This document shows positions 37,043 to 62,788 of a DNA stretch of 62,788 nt, piece after piece. A model generated the notes under the pieces. It was not told the origin of the DNA. It saw nothing but the letters and a program-made list of their open reading frames with translations, and searched no databases. Positions within the stretch are counted from its first letter, which is position 1; each line of letters begins with the position of its first letter. Origin of the DNA: Candidatus Uhrbacteria bacterium (GTDB lineage: Bacteria > Patescibacteriota > Patescibacteriia > UBA9934 > GWF2-40-263); assembly GCA_023246355.1 (NCBI GenBank), contig JAHFIQ010000006.1, positions 1-62,788 on the forward strand, given 5' to 3'. Both the position numbers and the translations under genes were made by a program.

Positions 37043-37071
37043 TTGACTGGAGCGAGAGTTTGAGGTAGAAC
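37043..37071 (+). promoter_or_regulatory. Putative promoter of structured RNA locus A
   Basis: TTGACT-N17-TAGAAC. The same arrangement (TTGACG-N17-TAGAAC) heads locus B. Confidence 0.5.
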
Positions 37072-37554
37072 CTTCTGTCGTGCGAGGAAACTACTGTCTT
37101 CGGATGACTGGGTGTCTGCACGACAAACGGCTCGACGATATTGTGGTTGTCAAAAGACGAAGGTTGGAGTGTCGAGCTAAATCATCGGGCGATTATCGTG
37201 CTGTCGAAAGACGACGAGGTTCTTGCCCGAGCATGAGTGACGACAGCTTCTTTGTCGTAAGACGCGGTAGCGGATGTCACCGACCACGGTATGTCGGTCA
37301 GACCGACAGATTTGCCGGACGACCCCAGGATTGCAGTCTGTGCGAATGGAAGTCTGTCCAGCAATTGCTCGACGATACATGCTGTGTCGAAAGACGTTAG
37401 TAGCCGTGTCGAGCAAACCATCGGGCGCACTTGTATCTGTCTGAAAAGACGAGAAGGGTAATGCCCGAGCATGAGTGACGAGCCGTCGTTTGTCTTTCGA
37501 CGATAGGCGCCCTGTCGCTCTCCTGCCTGGAATCACCTCCAGGCTTTTCTATTT
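37072..37554 (+). ncRNA. Large structured RNA candidate, locus A (~480 nt, two tandem sub-units)
   Basis: Conserved helices are shared with locus B: CTGTCGTGC 37075-37083 / GCACGACA 37118-37125; GCTCGAC/GTCGAGC at 37130-37136/37171-37177 and 37367-37373/37408-37414; CATCGGGCG with GCCCGA. It ends in the terminator 37525-37554 (GCCTGGA-N6-TCCAGGC + TTTTCTATTT). No ORF is conserved between the loci. Confidence 0.55.
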
Positions 37555-37682
37555 GGGGACAGGCTTGACATAAGGGGTTTTTACGATTAGTTTGATCATG
37601 CTGTTGCGGGGATTCCCTCTGCAATCATGCCCCATCGCGGCCCAGCCCCGTCTGGAACAAGCCCGGTGGATCGGAGGTCAAC

Positions 37683-38222
37683 ATGTACGGTCATCTCATT
37701 CTACACGCAAAGCCCGAGGCGGTTGGCATCAAGGACGTAAGCGCTCTCGGTACGCGTGGCGAAAACCTGTCACGTCCGAGTCTCGATGAAGTCACGGCCA
37801 CGTTCACGGGTTCCAAGCTTGAAGGTTTCGTCGCAGCAAACAACCTCAGTCACCATGGCCACGTGATGGTGCAGGCGGACGGCTCCCTGAAGGTCAACGT
37901 GGACGTGGTGATCGAACCGTTCACCGAAACGTTTACGTGCGAAAGCACCTGGAAGGACACGGAGTTCCTTGACGTCATGCTGCTGTGCTGGGTGAGTGTG
38001 CAACGCGACCCCAGCCAGGAGGCGCTGCGCAACGGCATTTGGAAAAACAGTCGAGCTGACTGGACCGGCCAGGTGGCTGCTGTCATCGTGAACGATCCCA
38101 GCGAACGTGACAATCGTCGCCGGAAGATTACTTTGGTGGGCAAATCGATCAAGGCTGTTCGAGAGGTTCTCTTCAAGGTCCTGCAAGGGGAGATCACTCC
38201 CGACAAGCCCTGGGTCATCTGA
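37683..38222 (+). CDS. Hypothetical protein (GC3-rich, strong SD) embedded between the two RNA loci
   Basis: GGAGGT plus a 4-nt spacer precedes the ATG. 179 aa, no recognisable family. Own terminator at 38231-38266. Confidence 0.6.
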   Translation: MYGHLILHAKPEAVGIKDVSALGTRGENLSRPSLDEVTATFTGSKLEGFVAANNLSHHGHVMVQADGSLKVNVDVVIEPFTETFTCESTWKDTEFLDVMLLCWVSVQRDPSQEALRNGIWKNSRADWTGQVAAVIVNDPSERDNRRRKITLVGKSIKAVREVLFKVLQGEITPDKPWVI

Positions 38223-38230
38223 CCCACGCC

Positions 38231-38266
38231 GGCGCGCTCCACTCGAGTGCGCCTTTTATTTTTTCC
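38231..38266 (+). terminator. Intrinsic terminator of ORF 37683..38222
   Basis: GGCGCgctccactcgagtGCGCC followed by TTTTATTTTTT. Confidence 0.6.
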
Positions 38267-38276
38267 AGGAGATCCC

Positions 38277-38305
38277 TTGACGAATTGGTCCTTATGAGGT
38301 AGAAC
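38277..38305 (+). promoter_or_regulatory. Putative promoter of structured RNA locus B
   Basis: TTGACG-N17-TAGAAC. Confidence 0.5.
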
Positions 38306-50072: not shown

Positions 50073-50849
50073 ATGATCCCTTACTTCCAATTCACTTCTT
50101 TTCACCTTGGTCCCGTCCCGATTCAAGTGTGGGGATTGTTTGTGTCGCTGGGCATTTTGGCCGGTGCTTGGGCGGCGGCGCGGATGGCCAAGATGAGGGG
50201 ACAGGATCCAGAAATCATTTGGGACTTGTCGGCCACGGTGATTGTCGCAGCGTTTATCGGAGCGCGGCTCGTTCACATGGTCTACGAGCCGAGCACCTAC
50301 CTTCAGGATCCTGTCGAGTTTTTCCGTATCTGGCATGGCGGGTTCTCGATCATGGGAGGATTTCTCGGTGCGCTTCCAGCTGGGATTTGGTTTTTACGAA
50401 AACGTCAGGTAGATGTTTTTGCCTACGCGGACACCGCCATATTTGGTCTTCCACTCGGAATTTTCATTGGTCGCATTGGCTGTTTCCTCATCCACGATCA
50501 TCCAGGAACGCTGACGAATTTTCCCCTCGGCGTTCAGTACCCCGACGGCGTGCGGCATGATCTTGGTCTCTACGATTCAATTAACGGGTTGATATTGTTC
50601 CTCGTGTTCCTTCTGCTCGTGCATCGAAAGGCCAAGACCGGAACCTTCGTTGTCGTGTTTCTTTTTTGGTACGGCATCGTAAGGTTCCTCCTCGATTTTC
50701 TCCGCGCCACCAACGGCCCGATCGTGGACACGCGTTACTTCAACCTCACTCCCGCCCAGTATCTCGCTGTGGTCATGGTGGTGGGAGGGGTGTGGGTGTG
50801 GAGGAAAAAGTTTTTCCATCCTTCTGTCCGTGGACCCATGGGGGATTGA
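50073..50849 (+). CDS. lgt: Phosphatidylglycerol--prolipoprotein diacylglyceryl transferase
   Basis: HGGFSIMGGFLG and GRIGCFLIHDHPG motifs. The start is taken at MIPYFQF, because the longer track ORF overlaps gatA. Confidence 0.85.
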   Translation: MIPYFQFTSFHLGPVPIQVWGLFVSLGILAGAWAAARMAKMRGQDPEIIWDLSATVIVAAFIGARLVHMVYEPSTYLQDPVEFFRIWHGGFSIMGGFLGALPAGIWFLRKRQVDVFAYADTAIFGLPLGIFIGRIGCFLIHDHPGTLTNFPLGVQYPDGVRHDLGLYDSINGLILFLVFLLLVHRKAKTGTFVVVFLFWYGIVRFLLDFLRATNGPIVDTRYFNLTPAQYLAVVMVVGGVWVWRKKFFHPSVRGPMGD

Positions 50850-54916: not shown

Positions 54917-55004
54917 GGAGAGGTCGCATAGTGGCCTAGTGCGCTCGCTTGGAAAGCGAGTATACCGAAAGGTATCCAGGGTTCGAATCCCTGCCTCTCC
55001 GCCA
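54917..55004 (+). tRNA. tRNA-Ser (anticodon GGA)
   Basis: Acceptor GGAGAGG/CCTCTCC, anticodon loop TTGGAAA, long variable arm TACC-GAAA-GGTA, T-arm CAGGG-TTCGAAT-CCCTG, encoded CCA. A hairpin TTCGACTACCGTT...AACGGTAGTCGAA follows. Confidence 0.92.
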
Positions 55005-55109
55005 TTCGACTACCGTTGTATTGTTTAGAACGGTAGTCGAATGCCCTGAGCTTGTCGAAGGGCAGAAGTGGAGATGTAGACAACCGCTCATGGTCGTTGA
55101 CCATTCGTT

Positions 55110-55472
55110 ATGGAGGAAATTTACTACGTCTACATACTTGCATGCGATGATGGAAGCTACTACGTCGGTTCGGCAAACGATGTCTTGCAAAGAGTCGTAC
55201 GTCACAACGCCGGTGAAGGAGCGGGTTGGACGAAGGATCGACGTCCTGTGAAGCTTGTGTATCAGGAAAAACATGAGTCGTTACTATCCGCGAGACAAAG
55301 AGAAGAGCAGATAAAGGGTTGGACACGTCGAAAAAAAAGAAAATTTGATCAGCGGATTTTGGAAAAAAATATAAAGAGTACTTCACCTAGGTATGAAAGT
55401 TATTCTCTACATGGCAATGACTGTCAACGGAATGATTGCTGGCACGGACGACAAGACAAATTGGTTGACTAA
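55110..55472 (+). CDS. GIY-YIG nuclease family protein
   Basis: YYVYILACDDGSYYVGSANDVLQRVVRHN ... REEQIKGW. Confidence 0.75.
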   Translation: MEEIYYVYILACDDGSYYVGSANDVLQRVVRHNAGEGAGWTKDRRPVKLVYQEKHESLLSARQREEQIKGWTRRKKRKFDQRILEKNIKSTSPRYESYSLHGNDCQRNDCWHGRQDKLVD

Positions 55473-55917
55473 AGAAGAAGCAGAAAGCTACTGCTCAATC
55501 GTTCGCGAGGCTGGGTGCCTGATTGTTGGAAGACGCACATATCACATTCTTACCAAGCAACCAGAGTTTCAAGAGTTTAACAACGCCAAGCTCATTGTTG
55601 TCTCGCATAATGATGTTAGGCTGGTCGACCCGTCGCACGCTGTTGCTCACTCACCACAAGAAGCTGTCGATTTGTTATCTGACTTTCGTGAAATTATTGT
55701 TGCTGGTGGTGGTATCCTCAATGCGTCCTTTCTTGCTGCTAATCTTGTAGACGAGATTTTTCTTGACATAGAACCAGTCATTCTTGGTGCTGGGATTCCT
55801 CTTTTCAAGGGTCAATCATTTGAACGAGACTTAAAGTTTCTTGGTCAAAAAATGATCTCGGATAGCGAGATTCAACTTCATTACGAGATCGTTAAGGAAA
55901 ATAGTTACAAAGGTTAA
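55393..55917 (+). CDS. Dihydrofolate reductase-like (RibD C-terminal domain) protein
   Basis: MKVILYMAMTVNGMIAG ... VAGGGILNASFL. AT-richer than its neighbours. Confidence 0.65.
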   Translation: MKVILYMAMTVNGMIAGTDDKTNWLTKEEAESYCSIVREAGCLIVGRRTYHILTKQPEFQEFNNAKLIVVSHNDVRLVDPSHAVAHSPQEAVDLLSDFREIIVAGGGILNASFLAANLVDEIFLDIEPVILGAGIPLFKGQSFERDLKFLGQKMISDSEIQLHYEIVKENSYKG

Positions 55918-55972
55918 CTCAGTGCATAATAATTCTCCGCAATGTGCTGAGAGTTTTTGCTGGCCACTTTCT

Positions 55973-56377
55973 TTATTTCACCTTCACCACACAACTTGCC
56001 ATGACCGGGTCGGGTTTGAAGCCTTCGATTTTGGCGCCTCGTCCTTTGCTTAAATCACGCAGGACGTTCATCACCTCACCAGCGATCGCGCCGGTGCCAT
56101 GGCCGTAGATGATTCGAACCATCCTTCCTGGATTCTCACTGAGGAGTTTATCGATGCCAAACGCGACATCTTCACGATGCATGCCGTGGAAGTCGACGTT
56201 TGGGAGCAACCGGTCCATCATGGCGATGTTGAATTGTTGATCGAGCGTCAGTTCCTCAGGTGGATTCTGAGCAGCTCGTTTGGAGGCTAAGCGCTCTTCT
56301 TTGGGTGGCGCGACCCAACTGTCTGGTTGGTTTTTTTCAGGTTGAGCACCTCGAGCCATTTCTGCACGTCTTCCCAT
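55973..56377 (-). CDS. Smr domain protein
   Basis: VDFHGMHREDVAFGIDKLL ... RIIYGHGTG. Confidence 0.7.
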   Translation of the reverse strand: MGRRAEMARGAQPEKNQPDSWVAPPKEERLASKRAAQNPPEELTLDQQFNIAMMDRLLPNVDFHGMHREDVAFGIDKLLSENPGRMVRIIYGHGTGAIAGEVMNVLRDLSKGRGAKIEGFKPDPVMASCVVKVK

Positions 56378-56437
56378 AGATAGTAAAGTTAGTGATTGCC
56401 TGGATTATAGCAGGATAGAAAAACCCGAGGCAAAACC

Positions 56438-56983
56438 TCAGGTCTGGGAGATGACCGCGTCCAGTTGTTCGGTTGCTCGTTGAAGACGGGTGAGTTCGGT
56501 GAGCAGAACCTGGTATGTACTCCAGGCGATCGCGCTTGTTTCCTTGGCCTGCGAGTGGCAGAGTCTGCGCCACTTAAACGGCTGCGGGCGGTGAGAGGTG
56601 AGCGTGATTTCCATGGCCGTGCTCTTGAACCACTCAAGTTCACGCGCAAATCTTTCCAGATCTTTTGCCTGCTTCTCGATCCTGTGCATGCTCTCAAGGA
56701 CCGTCGCGCTCAGAATGCGCAGCTGGGCTTCAACCTGTGCCTCTGAGGTGAGTCGATCATGTTCTGCTTGAACACGGATGCTGTCCAAGCCCACGAGCGT
56801 CGTTCTGGTGAGCAGGGTCGAGTGCACCACGACGAGCGATTGAAGCTCGTAGCTTGTGAGGATTTCCTCTGCTGAGTCCACCCCTTTGCACGTTTCGTGG
56901 ATGACGCGATCGGGATCTCTCCATTCACGGGCGATGGGCTGGGCGAGAGCCGAGGTGAGGCACAGGATCAGAGAGAGAATCAT
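56438..56983 (-). CDS. Secreted coiled-coil hypothetical protein
   Basis: The start is taken at MILSLILCLTSALAQ (signal peptide). The longer track ORF would overlap dnaG. Confidence 0.4.
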   Translation of the reverse strand: MILSLILCLTSALAQPIAREWRDPDRVIHETCKGVDSAEEILTSYELQSLVVVHSTLLTRTTLVGLDSIRVQAEHDRLTSEAQVEAQLRILSATVLESMHRIEKQAKDLERFARELEWFKSTAMEITLTSHRPQPFKWRRLCHSQAKETSAIAWSTYQVLLTELTRLQRATEQLDAVISQT

Positions 56984-57055
56984 TTCTGCTCCGTATCTGA
57001 TCTCCACCCTAGAGCGAGTAGATGAAACGGTCAATTGTGGTAGGCTATCAGCAGT

Positions 57056-58825
57056 ATGGACCCCAAGGATGAGATCAAACAAAAAATCGATATTGTGGAG
57101 CTGATCGGTGAGACGATTCAGTTGAAGGTGGCCGGTTCTTCTGGTCTCAAAGGACTGTGCCCATTCCACGCGGAGAAGACGCCCAGTTTTCACGTCTCGC
57201 GCGATCGGCAGATTTGGCATTGTTTTGGCTGTGGTGAGGGTGGGGATTGTTTTGCGTTCGTGATGAAGATGGATGGTATGACGTTTCCTGAGGCGCTCAT
57301 GCATCTTGGAAAAAAGACCGGTGTGGAAGTGCGACGACTTCCAACCGTGGAATCAAACACAAAGCAACGGCTGTATCAGGTGAATGAGCTCGCGCAGAAA
57401 TTTTTTCGAAAAGTCCTTCTTGATGCTGCTGGTGCAGAGGCAGCTCGGGCATATGTTGAGTCGCGGAGCATTCCCGCCGAGCTGGCAGACATTTTTGGCA
57501 TTGGCTATGCGCCGGACGAATGGGATGCGCTCTCAGGATTTCTACAAAAGCGTGGGTTCTCAGAAAACGAAATCATCCAAGGCGGCTTGGCTCTTAAAAA
57601 GAAAAGTGGATCAGGCGTGATCGATCGTTTTCGCCATCGTCTCATGATTCCATTGCGTGATCATCATGGCAATGTTGTTGGGTTTACGGGGAGAAGCATG
57701 CCAGGAGATGATCAGGGTCCAAAATACATGAACTCACCTGAGACGCCGATCTACCACAAAGGGAGTTTTGTGTTTGGACTGGATTTGGCCAAGCGCGCAA
57801 TTCGGGAAAAAGGATTTGTTGTGATCGTGGAGGGAAATCTCGACGTCGTTGCCTCTCACAAGGTAGGTGTACAAAACATCATTGCAAGTTCTGGGACAGC
57901 CCTTACTCAGGATCAGCTCACTCTGCTCAAACGTTATACAGAGACGATTGTTTTTTCTTTTGATGCAGACGCTGCTGGATTTGCCGCGGCGAAAAAGGGA
58001 ATCAGTCTTGCTCGCGGTCTTGGGTTTGATGTGCGCTCAGCTATTCTTCCTGACGGGGTGAAAGATCCTGACGAGCTTGTGCAGCAGAATCCTCTGGCCT
58101 GGGAAACGCTCGTCGTCAAGTCAGTACCGATCATGGAATTTTTGATCGCCCATGTCACAAAAGGAAAAGACTTGCGACAGGTTGACGATAAGCGAGAAGT
58201 TGCCAAAGAATTGTTGCCAGCGATTTCTGACATGTCATCAGTGGTAGAACGCGAGCATTGGTTGCAAGTGGTGGCTGATCTTCTGTCTATTTCAGCGGAT
58301 CAACTGCGAGCTTCTTTGCAGCCTCCGACATCCGTGAAGCCATCGACGTCATCGACAGTTTCAAAACCTTCTCTTCCCAAAGACGAACAAGCCCGCCGTC
58401 TTTTGTTTGGCTTTGCCATTCAAACGCCGTCTCAGTTTGAGAGCGTTGTTGCACGACTCAAGCCTCTGGCTCTGAACAGCCAGCTGTGGATAACCCTTTA
58501 CAATCTGGCTCTCAGCGCGTATGATCCAAGCAGTCAAGCAGCACAAACATCGCATTTTTCAAGGATTCGATCTCTCACGTCCGGCCATGCAGATCAAGAA
58601 GCCCTCGAGGCACTTCTTGATACATCTATTTTAATGGCCGAAGAAACGTTTGCGGATATTCCTGAGAATCAATGGCTGCCAAGAATCGAAGAGCTTTTTT
58701 CTGTTTTAAGCACGCTTGGCCTCAGTCGTGACCGTGAGGCTCTTGCGCGAGCTTTGCGTCAAGCGGAACTCGTAGGGGATCAGGAAGAAGTCAAACGTTT
58801 GTTAAATTCCATGCCTCGATTATGA
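57056..58825 (+). CDS. dnaG: DNA primase
   Basis: Zinc finger [13 protein letters not shown]...CFGCG and TOPRIM motif VIVEGNLDV...DADAAG. Confidence 0.95.
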
Positions 58826-60099
58826 AGAAGCACCCAAAGTCCGGCCTAAAGGCCGGATCCGGCTACGCCGGAAAAAAAAATCGTCCTCACGTACAAAAGA
58901 AAAAAGTCGTGGTGAAGCCGAAGCAGAAAAAAAAGGTTCAAGTGAAAAAAGTTCACGCCATGAAAAAGCCTGTTCATGCACCTGAGCCGAAAGTTCGTTA
59001 CAAGCGCGCAGAACCTCCATCGGAAATCGTTTTGGAAAAACTCGTTGACAAAGGCATGCGCCGCGGGTACATCACCGAAAACGAGATTCTTTTTACGTTT
59101 ACGGATCTCGAGGACTATCTGGAGGTGTTTGAAGACTTTCTCGACGAGCTGGATCGAGTCGGTGTGCACTTTGTTGAAGTCAAGGAAGGCATTTTGGGTC
59201 GTGACAAAGAGCGTGGCGACGTGTACGACAAAATTCGCGTCAGTGAGGATGCACGTCGGACCGTGCTTCCAGACATCACACAGGACTCGATCCAAATGTA
59301 CTTACGTGAGATCGGAAAAATTCCTCTGCTTACCGGTGAAATGGAAGTTGCACTTGCCAAGCGTAAGGAACGCAATGAAAAAGAAGCTGAGCGTCGGCTT
59401 ATCGAAGCCAATCTGCGCTTGGTGGTTTCGATTGCGAAAAAATTCGTGGGCAAGTCCATGTCGCTTTTGGATTTGATCCAAGAAGGCAACATTGGTTTGT
59501 TTCGCGCCGTGAAAAAATTTGAGTATCGCAAGGGTTACAAATTTTCTACCTATGCGACCTGGTGGATTCGCCAGGCAATCACCCGCGCCTTGGCTGACCA
59601 GTCTCGCACCATTCGTATTCCGGTTCACATGGTGGAGACCATCAACAAGTTTCAACAGATCGAACGTCAGCTCATCCAAGACTTGGGACGCGAGCCTCTC
59701 GCCGAGGAAATTGCCGCTGAGATGGGCCAGCCGATCGAGAAGGTTCGGCATATCAGAAAAATTTCGCAAGAGACGGTGTCTCTTGAAACGTCCGTGGGTG
59801 ATGACGACGAAGATTCCAAGCTTGAAGATTTTATCGAGGACGTGAAGACAATCTCGCCTGACCGCACGGCCGCGCGAGAACTCCTCAAGGACTACGTGAA
59901 TAAAGCTATGGAAGGTCTCACCCCGCGCGAGCAGAAAATTCTTGAAATGCGTTTTGGTCTCACCGATGGTGTCAGCCACACCCTGGAAGAAGTCGGCCGC
60001 GAGTTTGACGTCACCCGCGAACGTATCCGTCAAATCGAAGCCAAGGCGCTCGAGAAAATTCAGGCGAATCCGTTGATTGAGAAGTTAAGGGATTATTAG
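58822..60099 (+). CDS. rpoD: RNA polymerase primary sigma factor with a Lys-rich N-terminal extension
   Basis: Region 2 ([30 protein letters not shown]) and region 4 ([24 protein letters not shown]). Confidence 0.95.
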
Positions 60100-60101
60100 C
60101 T

Positions 60102-61040
60102 ATGGAAACTCAGAGAAATCCAGAAGAACAGCGCGTCCGCGAGTTAGCAAATCGGTGGCATCGAAGTTTTGAAAAAATGAAAGAGGAATGGTTGGCTCGT
60201 CCGGAAACAACATTGGACGATCTTGTTGATTTGTATTGGGACGGATATATTCTTGGTCGAATTGCTCCTCTAGATCAGGACGAGAAGGATGCCAGAGCAA
60301 CATTGAAAAAAGATGTGTGGGCAGGAACGCGGGACGACAAAGAACTTTATGAAAGAATTCTTTACTCGATCCTAAACGGCAAAGAAGCATTGGGGAAAAA
60401 TCTTTCAGCGATTAGTCCAGGTTATGCCGCCGGTGCTGTGATGGATTCCATGCAGATTGTTTATAGAAAATTTTTGCATCAACTCCCAAAAGCAAAATAT
60501 AGGAGTGAACCCGACGTGCATTATTTTGCCGATAAGTTTGTTGAGAAAGCAAGACAGGAGTTTGTTCGTCACGGGGGTCAAGGGGACAAGCTCCTTCGGG
60601 TTGGTTCACATGGAAGGGTGGGTGACATTCTTGTAACCGTGGAGGGGATTACTCCAGACGGAAAGGTCTGGCTAGTGGCAGATAATCCAGGACGTGATTA
60701 CATGCGCCTATATGATACGATTCAGTCGCTAGATCCTGACGCTTCTGGTACAGCTATTCTGGCGAGTAAGCTTGATCTTGCATCCTTTACTAATCCAGAA
60801 TTGCCAAGCCAATTTTCTACAGAGATCCGTTTTACTTTTTCACGTCGTACCAACCATAATGTGACTCGATCAATCAGTCAGGATCTCGAAGCACATGGAA
60901 TTCCTGTACACTTGGTCGATCTACGTCCGGTTTGGGATAGACTCTTTTTAGACAAGAAAGAGGGAGATGAAGTACAGGCGAAGATTATTTTTAGCAAAGA
61001 GGATGGAATGCGTTGTGAGGTGAGCGGGACCTCGGCATAG
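60102..61040 (+). CDS. Hypothetical protein inserted between rpoD and a displaced copy of the rpoD 3' end
   Basis: 312-aa ORF starting 2 nt after the rpoD stop. No family recognised. Confidence 0.6.
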   Translation: METQRNPEEQRVRELANRWHRSFEKMKEEWLARPETTLDDLVDLYWDGYILGRIAPLDQDEKDARATLKKDVWAGTRDDKELYERILYSILNGKEALGKNLSAISPGYAAGAVMDSMQIVYRKFLHQLPKAKYRSEPDVHYFADKFVEKARQEFVRHGGQGDKLLRVGSHGRVGDILVTVEGITPDGKVWLVADNPGRDYMRLYDTIQSLDPDASGTAILASKLDLASFTNPELPSQFSTEIRFTFSRRTNHNVTRSISQDLEAHGIPVHLVDLRPVWDRLFLDKKEGDEVQAKIIFSKEDGMRCEVSGTSA

Positions 61041-61046
61041 ATGTAG

Positions 61047-61112
61047 ATCGAGGCCAAGGCTCTGGAGAAGATCCAAGCCAATCCATTGATTGAGAAGTTG
61101 AGGGATTATTAG
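61047..61112 (+). pseudogene. Orphan duplicate of the last 21 codons plus stop of rpoD
   Basis: Aligns codon for codon with 60034-60099 ([21 protein letters not shown]). There are 9 differences, all third-position and synonymous. Confidence 0.9.
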
Positions 61113-61153
61113 CGAAGTGGGGTCAGGTCTGGAATCTGGAATTTTACGTAGCA

Positions 61154-61181
61154 ATCAGGCCATCCGGCCTGATTTTGTTTT
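61154..61181 (+). terminator. Intrinsic terminator after the rpoD remnant
   Basis: TCAGGCC-atcc-GGCCTGA followed by TTTTGTTTT. Confidence 0.65.
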
Positions 61182-61381
61182 CTGGAAGGACAAAGAATGG
61201 TCAACTATTTTTCATACAGATAAAAGAAGAGAAAAGATTTGGAGAAAAAAAGAAAAAGACTCTCCGCCAAGTTGGGGCTTATGAACCCCGGCCGAAAGCC
61301 TTTTTCATATTTAAGATACTTATAGGATCACGAGTTGTCAAATGCAAATTGAAAACCTACCCGGGTGGGTAGGTGCGTGGG

Positions 61382-62536
61382 CTAGCGGCTGGTCGTATCG
61401 ACGACTCGCATGGCGAACCAGCGAGCGTCCTCATCTTTCAGCGAGCCAGGAAGTTTCTCGAAGAGGGGCTGCCTTTTTTCGTAGGTCGTGATGGCTCCGA
61501 TCGCGATGCTGATGATCGTCTGGTCGTAGGCGATCTGGATCGGACCCTCGTCTGCGGTGATCGTGATGGGCCCACGGAGCTTGCGATCCATGGCCGAGAG
61601 CACGTCGCTGGTCGTGGCCTGGCCCAGATGCTTGTGCTCCCTGCGCGAACGCGGAGGCCGAGCCAGCATCACACGATCCGTGTGGTCCAGCTGCGGCTGC
61701 AGACCCATCCACTTGGTACCGAGCTGGCGTGCGAACAGGGTCCACGTCGGCCCCTCGATCGAGACAGCTTGCTCCCTCCACACCTGGGCTGCCTCATTGA
61801 ACGAGACGAAGTGTTCACAGAGGCCGCTTTCACGGATCGCGGCGAACAGCTCCTCCCAGATCGTCAGCCCGTGATGGGAGCCGACCAGTGGCGCCTCCAG
61901 ATCGAGGAAGAAGACCAGGACGTCGTCCTTGCCATCCTTCGCGACCGCGCGGATCTCGCCGAGGAGCTTGTCCAGGTTTTCCTGGCTCTTGAAGCGCTGC
62001 CACAGGAAGAACGCGTCCTGCATGGGCTTCACGCCCAGCATCGGCACCACGATCTTGTCGTGGAAGCGGATGGCCTTGTAGCCCTCGAGCTTGGAGCCGG
62101 GTTCTACGTCACCGGTCGAGCACTCCGAGTAGAGCACGGTCTGACCCGGGAGAGCGAACAGGATCTGTTCACCTTCGGGCAGGATGTCCGTACGTGGAAT
62201 GTCGAACTCGGGCGTGAAGTAGCCAGGCACGTTGCCGACCACACGACCCTCGTTCAGGAGGTACCTCGCGTGTTCGCTCAGCCTCGGGTGCTTCTCGAAG
62301 CGGGAGGGGAGGAAGTGGTTGCCAGGGGCAGAGAGCAGCTCGATCCCAGCGAACGCCTTCTCGTCGACGCCGAACATGTCCAGGTCGTCGCGTTGGAACG
62401 AGACGGAGACAGGGAATCCGGCGGTCTTCAGGACCTTGTGCCAGTCCCAGAATCCGAGGATGTACTCACGCCGCCTCTTGGCCTGGACGTTGCTATGCCG
62501 GGTATTGCCCGGTAGGTACAGATGAATCCGACTCAC
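61382..62536 (-). CDS. Hypothetical protein, GC3-rich, GTG start with SD
   Basis: GAGGT-caac-GTG start. Very strong GC3 bias on this strand. Downstream hairpin CCTACCCACCCGGGTAGG plus a T-run. The weak LDLEAPLVG / IWEELF similarity to GH57-like or deacetylase-like folds is speculative. Confidence 0.6.
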   Translation of the reverse strand: MSRIHLYLPGNTRHSNVQAKRRREYILGFWDWHKVLKTAGFPVSVSFQRDDLDMFGVDEKAFAGIELLSAPGNHFLPSRFEKHPRLSEHARYLLNEGRVVGNVPGYFTPEFDIPRTDILPEGEQILFALPGQTVLYSECSTGDVEPGSKLEGYKAIRFHDKIVVPMLGVKPMQDAFFLWQRFKSQENLDKLLGEIRAVAKDGKDDVLVFFLDLEAPLVGSHHGLTIWEELFAAIRESGLCEHFVSFNEAAQVWREQAVSIEGPTWTLFARQLGTKWMGLQPQLDHTDRVMLARPPRSRREHKHLGQATTSDVLSAMDRKLRGPITITADEGPIQIAYDQTIISIAIGAITTYEKRQPLFEKLPGSLKDEDARWFAMRVVDTTSR

Positions 62537-62788
62537 GTTGACCTCTGCCTACGGCTGTTCGTAGGCGAACGATTGATTGAGACATGCGTCCCAAGTCACC
62601 CAGGTTATTCCAGGCGACGCTTGATAATAGGTCAATTCGGCCAAAAAGTCAATGGTTTGGTTGACAACCCGAATTCTATACATATTGCCCCACCCCCTGG
62701 AATGAGCCGGATTTCCTTGAGAATATGGCTCGTATGCGTCGACTCACATTCCTTGAGAGGCAGATCATTGAATTGTTACTAGCCAGGA

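Follow-up and report, generated by a model that had tools for sequence, protein, structure and literature searches.

A duplicated rpoD 3′ end around an orphan gene in Candidatus Uhrbacteria, a candidate scar of recombination between lineages

In a contig of 62,788 nucleotides (nt) from a Candidatus Uhrbacteria bacterium (JAHFIQ010000006.1 of assembly GCA_023246355.1; analysed over its whole length and referred to as the window), the primary sigma factor gene rpoD is followed by a single open reading frame (ORF) of 312 amino acids (aa), ORF312, and then by a second copy of its own last codons. Most likely, recombination has left a scar here around an orphan gene that spreads laterally, and did so recently, as shown by the relic, which has remained untouched against a background of saturated synonymous divergence.

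The two segments, 60034–60099 (copy 1) and 61047–61112 (copy 2), encode the identical 21-residue RpoD tail and share 57 of 66 nt, with all nine differences being synonymous and falling at third codon positions. Inclusion of the C after the stop codon extends the repeat to 67 nt at a spacing of 1013 nt; the longest identical cores are TTGATTGAGAAGTT (14 nt) and AGGGATTATTAGC (13 nt). Local alignment of the ORF312 flanks placed the repeat at z = 32 over shuffled flanks, excluding a chance origin. Nei–Gojobori counts revealed proportions of synonymous (pS) and non-synonymous (pN) differences of 0.72 and 0 between the copies, as compared to 0.59–0.66 and 0.02–0.035, respectively, for whole rpoD against the related genomes L017, L037 and L041. 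A degenerate-pattern search of GTDB (12-residue pattern) found the tail peptide to be invariant, and its synonymous codons to differ, in 16 species genomes, nine of them titled Candidatus Uhrbacteria and the others Parcubacteria, Patescibacteria, generic "bacterium" or, in two cases, uncultured Gammaproteobacteria. Had the copies begun identical and copy 2 drifted neutrally as non-coding DNA, nine synonymous differences out of nine would have a probability of P ~4.5e-5. As the copies are as diverged as rpoD of different species and yet free of amino-acid changes, both would have evolved as coding sequence in different lineages, and on this comparison they appear to come from lineages at species-level divergence, with the coding pattern preserved. 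The initial annotation, made from the letters of the window alone, had described an rpoD tail duplicated around a single ORF with exclusively synonymous differences and had taken both copies to have evolved as coding sequence in separate lineages; the description was confirmed by the counts, and its interpretation is in line with the between-species values and the invariant peptide.

An assembly artefact—named by the initial annotation as what could undo its reading—is excluded. The 1.5 kb across both junctions were 100% identical in all nine loci fetched, and several samples yielded, through two pipelines (megahit k141 assemblies in ENA and Logan contigs), at least 16 contigs that carry ORF312. 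Since the junction between the end of ORF312 and copy 2 shares no sequence with the body of rpoD, a de Bruijn graph mis-join of strain variants cannot create it.

The duplication is embedded in a co-oriented unit on the + strand, dnaG–rpoD–ORF312, with dnaG first. The primase gene dnaG (57056–58825, 589 aa; assigned from the ORF list and from Pfam families on the identical gene in contig L001) overlaps the start of rpoD (58822–60099), which encodes an intact primary sigma-70 factor of 425 aa with Pfam Sigma70 regions r1.2, r2, r3 and r4. Copy 1 (60034–60100) comprises the working last 21 rpoD codons with the stop, i.e. the end of region 4.2, plus 1 nt, and ORF312 (60102–61040) starts 2 nt past the rpoD stop as the only ORF in the 947 nt between the copies. 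A hexanucleotide, ATGTAG (61041–61046), links its end to the displaced rpoD tail, with TAG ATG TAG standing directly before copy 2 (61047–61113), an untranslated relic that lies in the ORF312 frame. Read-through of TAG joining ORF312 to copy 2 was considered and rejected, as rpoD itself ends in TAG and there are two stops in between. Unrelated sequences adjoin the copies on the left (GGCATAGATGTAG for copy 2, rpoD for copy 1), and the hexanucleotide lacks homology to rpoD upstream of 60034, save for an AG that matches a CAG codon at the corresponding position in relatives; one junction is thus without homology. Immediately after the displaced end come the native downstream sequences, namely the GGGGTCAGGTCTGGAATCTGGAATTTT block (61119–61145, + strand) and the intrinsic terminator of the rpoD operon (61153–61182, + strand; 9-bp stem, loop ATCC, T-run). 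An Rfam search of 59800–61500 returned no meaningful family.

Comparison with relatives, suggested by the initial annotation, revealed empty sites. The window RpoD is 94–97% identical to the closest Uhrbacteria RpoD proteins (81–85% for rpoD at the nucleotide level). L041 and L042 are syntenic with the window on both sides (TrmB, DUF218, dnaG and rpoD upstream; a 384-aa gene on the other strand and a 436-aa gene downstream) but have rpoD and the 384-aa gene only 88 nt apart. L017, the closest GTDB species, is syntenic upstream; its rpoD stop gives way, after AT, to GGGGTCAGGTCCGGAATCGGGAATT, i.e. the GGGGTCAGG block found in the window after copy 2. In L037, four nt separate the stop from AATCAGGCCACACGGCCTGATTTTGC, the homologue of the window terminator with a conserved stem and a different loop; the stem is likewise kept, and the loop variable, in L010, a contig with an ORF312 homologue considered below. 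With the rpoD end of L041, a syntenic relative, copy 2 shares 90% identity, and most relatives differ from it at slightly fewer positions than they do from copy 1 (6 vs. 8, 6 vs. 10 and 7 vs. 10 differences). Because the same block or terminator follows rpoD in relatives, copy 2 is joined to the native rpoD-downstream DNA of the clade. The hairpin behind it is accordingly the original, conserved rpoD terminator, as first proposed, and ORF312 is an insertion relative to the syntenic relatives with empty sites (L041/L042, L017 and L037). No ORF312 relative was found near rpoD among the 16 GTDB loci, and no island or integrase at the rpoD site among 22 related rpoD loci.

Downstream of the locus, the stretch from the rpoD terminator to the terminator of the 384-aa gene (61175–61354) is an A-rich spacer of ~180 nt, as compared to 88 nt for the whole spacer between rpoD and the 384-aa gene in L041; the surplus may stem from this recombination event as well. 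Beyond it, long ORFs occupy both strands (61382–62536 on the − strand vs. 61373–62515 on the + strand) of a GC-rich stretch (~60% GC, by eye). Most gene calls in public assemblies choose the + strand ORF of 380 aa. The genuine gene of the pair is apparently the − strand ORF of 384 aa, which has its own terminator (61374–61355), is 81% conserved at the nucleotide level in L041 and matches no entry of Pfam, NCBIfam, PHROG or PADLOC.

ORF312 itself is compositionally foreign to its surroundings. Its GC content at third codon positions (GC3) is 0.38, as opposed to 0.557 ± 0.064 (minimum 0.463) in a set of 30 further long ORFs from the window, and the drop coincides exactly with the rpoD/ORF312 boundary. 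Sequence and profile searches of Pfam, PHROGs, PADLOC, NCBIfam and PDB gave no match. Word-indexed homologue searches returned one and three proteins, and the family emerged solely with an exhaustive HMMER scan of 1.84 billion cluster representatives, which yielded 86 relatives. Most of these measure ~230 aa and match residues 1–205, while a few of ~300–320 aa carry an extra C-terminal domain; the ten clusters looked up were singletons on one to three contigs. Against its closest relative, ORF307 of L010 (54% identity), ORF312 showed a pN of 0.29, ~10 times that of rpoD, at saturated synonymous sites. Judged from these comparisons, ORF312 belongs to a rare, unannotated, fast-evolving and patchily present orphan family of Patescibacteria type. 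Neither terminal inverted repeats around ORF312 nor paralogues or other gene-end relics elsewhere in the window were found. The family was not detected by tblastn in viral contigs, phage genomes or plasmids, and a scan with the motif DPELYWR..Y hit no viral locus and four JGI metagenome loci.

An AlphaFold2 model of ORF312 from a 42-sequence alignment reached a predicted local distance difference test (pLDDT) of 95.5 and a predicted template modelling score (pTM) of 0.91. It consists of a seven-helix N-terminal domain, a small beta-barrel-like middle part and an alpha/beta C-terminal domain, for which Foldseek retrieved nothing of any kind from PDB or BFVD with an E value below 0.18. Residues conserved in the family (W19, P56, R65, R77, Y83, R85, Y88 and G187) do not include an acidic/His set as in nucleases. 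Overall, domain, profile and structure searches gave no recombinase, nuclease or transposase signature, in agreement with the initial annotation, which had seen no integrase or other mobility gene. The same searches spoke against a free-standing homing endonuclease gene, as no LAGLIDADG, GIY-YIG, HNH, PD-(D/E)xK or similar domain or fold was detected in ORF312.

Where the family resides was read at 12 loci out of the ~86 clusters, and in all 12 the family gene is co-oriented with a conserved upstream gene, mostly at a distance of 1–25 nt. It lies 3′ of rpoD in the window and L010, 3′ of secD in L011 and L012 (where it separates secD from secF), 3′ of ychF and ahead of the ychF terminator in L043, 3′ of a short atpC-like gene in L035, 3′ of a PIN gene and 5 nt before ruvB in L045, 3′ of a glycosidase-like gene in L015 and 3′ of a HAD-like gene in L034; L014, L016 and L033 provide other contexts. 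This spread over secD, ychF, atpC and further genes does not favour a mobile element with rpoD as its specific target; the initial annotation had envisaged one aimed at the 3′ end of an essential gene. Repeats flanking the family ORF were significant in two of the 12 loci when controlled by shuffling, the window and L014. In L014, a homologue of 36% identity sits in a 993-nt unit flanked by a 34-nt repeat, TATGAACACAGACCAACTCGGCATGCTGCT(T/C)AAT, of which the copy on the downstream side begins an intact gene and the one on the upstream side is a truncated relic, with a single, synonymous mismatch between them. By its sequence, L014 is the mirror image of the window, with the start of the downstream gene duplicated instead of the end of the upstream gene.

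L010 offers the closest comparison. Here, a 22-nt spacer separates the rpoD stop from ORF307, behind which come the same GGGGTCAG block and terminator, and no significant second rpoD tail is present; a candidate decayed tail over the ORF307 stop (CGTTGATTaaGAGAA) was discarded, as 68 of 1000 shuffles scored as high. Of the homologues beside rpoD 3′ fragments that the initial annotation suggested looking for, L010 thus offers the position behind rpoD but no fragment, and an ORF at the site without a duplicated segment, regarded beforehand as a point against the interpretation, is in part what L010 presents. The downstream sequence pairs L010 with L037 and the window with L041, both partners being empty; two lineages thus carry the gene at the same rpoD site while their downstream-synteny partners do not, which makes it patchy.

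Several minor features of these loci were recorded. In L045 (581–605 vs. 1516–1535), the first codons of the family ORF, TATGAGCGAAC, resemble TATGATCGAAC of ruvB, and in L014 (79–95 vs. 1019–1036) its first codons, TATGGAACACAGAGAAC, resemble TATGAACACAGACCAAC of the downstream host gene; these resemblances around the start codon could represent insertion microhomology or a captured start. In L035 (reverse-complemented), a 13-nt AT-rich direct repeat, TTAAAAAATAATT, has one copy ~25 nt ahead of the start of the family ORF and the other at its stop, being of low complexity and borderline against shuffles (z = 3.5). At the start of the JGI contig L011, a piece from within the secF region recurs in inverted orientation (29–140 vs. 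1826–1937), and secF is split over two ORFs, which may reflect an assembly artefact or a local inversion beside the family gene.

The explanation that we favour, and to which we give about an even chance, is that the locus is a scar of "3′-end displacement" at rpoD, produced when rpoD alleles of diverged lineages, one with and one without the ORF, recombined. Two Uhrbacteria lineages a species-level distance apart, one with an orphan gene behind rpoD and the other with rpoD followed by the terminator region, would have exchanged DNA. We infer that the incoming fragment paired on one side only—via rpoD if ORF312 arrived, via the terminator region if an ORF-free fragment arrived—and that its other end was joined without homology, 6 nt past the ORF312 stop. 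The product would be an rpoD with the tail of one lineage, ORF312, the last 66 nt of the other lineage's rpoD as a dead relic and the native terminator. ORF312 would probably be read through from dnaG–rpoD, with transcription ending at the old rpoD terminator, and translated by termination–reinitiation (TAG-CT-ATG). The absence of similarity at the left edges of the copies is as expected of an illegitimate joint, and the mirror-image duplication in L014 counts in favour of one-sided recombination. The ORF312 gene was found only in the window population and in L010, with the partners L041 and L037 and, near rpoD, the 16 GTDB species lacking it. One-sided (single-crossover) capture of DNA from a relative, put forward as an alternative by the initial annotation, fits best; of its view that two lineages had been joined, the arrival of one rpoD end from another lineage and the insertion of the ORF stand, whereas the proposed rpoD-targeting mobile element found no support. 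The ORF312 protein would, on this explanation, be the product of a fast-evolving accessory gene that spreads with its conserved neighbour as homology anchor, rather than a self-moving enzyme. As to direction, we favour, with modest confidence, ORF312 and copy 1 as the incoming DNA, because of the 2-nt coupling, the foreign composition of ORF312 and its absence from the syntenic relative.

Displacement of gene ends has precedents. For rhs, contact-dependent inhibition (CDI) and type VI secretion system (T6SS) effector–immunity loci, C-terminal (3′-end) displacement by homology-facilitated illegitimate recombination was put forward (PMC5361080; Jackson et al. 2009, PMC2935791; mechanism PMC3240628). 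The window resembles those systems in that a fragment anchored by conserved upstream coding sequence would have brought a new gene end plus cargo, with the old end pushed downstream and kept as an orphan and with one junction homologous and the other not. It differs from them in its anchor, an essential housekeeping sigma factor instead of a polymorphic toxin, in that its two gene ends, new and old, specify one and the same peptide and leave the host protein unchanged, and in its cargo, one orphan gene instead of a toxin tip with immunity gene, after a single displacement and without an array.

A number of observations weigh against one-sided recombination. No donor or recipient lineage closer than ~85% nucleotide identity was found from which to map the crossover point or the direction, and neither sliding identity to four relatives nor the GC3 profile gave a signal of a recombination breakpoint within rpoD; homologous pairing at 15–19% divergence is, moreover, inefficient. 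Both duplicated loci have their non-homologous joint 6–22 nt from an ORF boundary, and both inserts measure ~1 kb (1013 and 993 nt) and hold the family gene alone. Two relic loci out of 12 in a small family seem too regular for random one-sided recombination, which leaves room for an element-defined mechanism.

Among the rivals, the one that fares best reverses the direction of transfer. ORF312 would have been resident behind rpoD, as in L010, where the gene occupies the same place without a relic, and a fragment of an ORF-free relative would have recombined via the terminator region, its free end in the rpoD tail being joined after ORF312. A short spacer between the ORF and the GGGGTCAGG block would then explain why the joint adjoins the stop codon, and the slightly closer match of copy 2 to most relatives points the same way. 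However, the GC3 of ORF312 lies far outside the genome range and argues for recent arrival over long residence, and the gene is absent from the syntenic relative L041; codon-usage log-likelihoods slightly favour copy 2 as native (−10.0 vs. −10.9), a difference too weak to decide. We regard this reversal as unlikely, if the most plausible of the alternatives.

Somewhat less probable still is that the ORF312 family constitutes a new self-mobile single-gene element, homing-like or with a novel recombinase, which inserts at conserved gene ends and carries or creates a replacement end. The recurrence of a lone co-oriented gene beside conserved genes (rpoD twice, secD twice, ychF, atpC and before ruvB) is what such an element would leave, as are host gene-end duplications around units of near-equal size holding the family gene alone in two of 12 loci, an rpoD site filled in two lineages with empty downstream-synteny partners, and, in L014 and L045, an ORF start resembling that of the host gene downstream. 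The confidently predicted fold, unmatched in PDB and BFVD, and the conserved R65, R77, Y83, R85 and Y88, which in the model could bind nucleic acid, would also suit it. This stands against the lack of any nuclease or recombinase motif or fold and of a conserved acidic or His catalytic set, the lack of terminal inverted repeats and shared end sequences, ten of 12 loci without flanking repeat, and no detection of the family in viral, phage or plasmid collections; nor can a staggered-cut duplication produce the nine synonymous differences between the window repeats. In its full form, this proposal would make the family a self-propagating Patescibacteria single-gene element of new fold that inserts at the ends of conserved, well-expressed genes (rpoD, secD, ychF, atpC, ruvB) and preserves their integrity by supplying or copying the gene end, with no known recombinase or nuclease, which we hold to be a shade more doubtful again.

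Free-standing homing endonuclease genes of phages (intronless homing) normally use homology on both sides and leave no duplication. Like them, ORF312 is a lone, selfish-looking gene beside a conserved essential gene, patchy in relatives and co-transferred with flanking markers; unlike them, it shows no nuclease domain or fold, and a duplication is present.

A stripped remnant of a larger element, with the rpoD 3′ end as attachment site attB, a replacement tail carried along and an integrase deleted later to leave attL, a cargo gene and attR, would come as a surprise. The model for it is the integration of e14 and phage 21 in the 3′ end of E. coli icd, which leaves the icdC pseudogene (PMC13626634, citing Hill, Gray & Brody 1989); e14 is ~15 kb in size, with its own site-specific integrase and excision. 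The icd case is alike in that the insert supplies a replacement 3′ end and the essential or central gene keeps working, that the original end is a short far-side pseudogene and that differences between the copies are largely synonymous; imperfect direct repeats that restore an essential gene and differ synonymously are exactly the icd/icdC anatomy (PMC13626634). The window does have 66–67-nt direct repeats restoring rpoD and empty sites in L041/L042, L017 and L037, as expected of attachment sites, and the identical cores TTGATTGAGAAGTT and AGGGATTATTAGC could serve as crossover region. However, just 947 nt with one gene and no recombinase signature or integrase separate the repeats, and none of the 22 related rpoD loci has an island or integrase at this site. 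L014, furthermore, is an independent insert of near-equal size with the same family, at a different gene and the opposite gene end, and two such converging decays are unlikely.

Hardly credible, finally, is a collapse of strain variants during assembly or drift after a target-site or tandem duplication: the metagenome origin and the breaks of several contigs at 54975 and 62667, with strain-level structural variants nearby, would allow it, but the agreement of the junctions across loci, samples and assemblers, the lack of a shared k-mer at the junction and the all-synonymous pattern (P = 4.5e-5 under duplication and drift) oppose it. On the latter value, and for lack of a transposase and of terminal inverted repeats, an insertion sequence or transposon with target-site duplication was rejected. 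A diversity-generating retroelement was likewise dismissed, as no reverse transcriptase is present and the differences between the copies affect all bases, are not adenine-specific and are all synonymous.

As a recombination scar, the locus would be a clean and datable trace of DNA exchanged by lineages that differ at species level, within an uncultured group of the candidate phyla radiation (CPR), and would indicate that the conserved tail of an essential gene can act as a landing pad. Its interest rests mainly on the unexplained ORF312 family and its recurrent position, as the locus flags a rare, fast-evolving family with a confident but unmatched predicted fold that has repeatedly lodged behind housekeeping genes. 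Should the family mobilise itself, minimal mobile genes would gain a new class; otherwise, the family would still be useful as a recombination marker and as a target for structural genomics.

At a larger scale, contigs from other samples were 99.9–100% identical to the window between 54975 and 62667. L003 diverges upstream of 54975, L001, L002 and L005 diverge downstream of 62667, and the Logan contig L004 spans exactly 54977–62667; these breaks point to structural variants on both sides, one of them inside tRNA-Ser (54917–55004). Beyond 62667, the window leaves the syntenic arrangement (a 438-aa gene in L001 and a 436-aa gene in L041), and an ORF opening at 62725 (MARMRRLTFLERQIIELLLAR...) is possibly a mobile-element gene at the contig end. 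A stand-alone GIY-YIG domain ORF of 120 aa (55110–55472, + strand) lies ~100 nt downstream of tRNA-Ser, in the kilobase of lowest GC content in the window (0.438). Farther away, a cluster of direct repeats of 80–175 nt and 75–78% identity at 37061–38813 (37061–37230 vs. 38295–38465, 37407–37555 vs. 38666–38813, and others) points to tandem paralogous genes or a repeat-domain protein, and a sequence of ~40 nt occurs three times in the window at 87–88% identity (1910–1949, 2480–2521 and 50033–50079).

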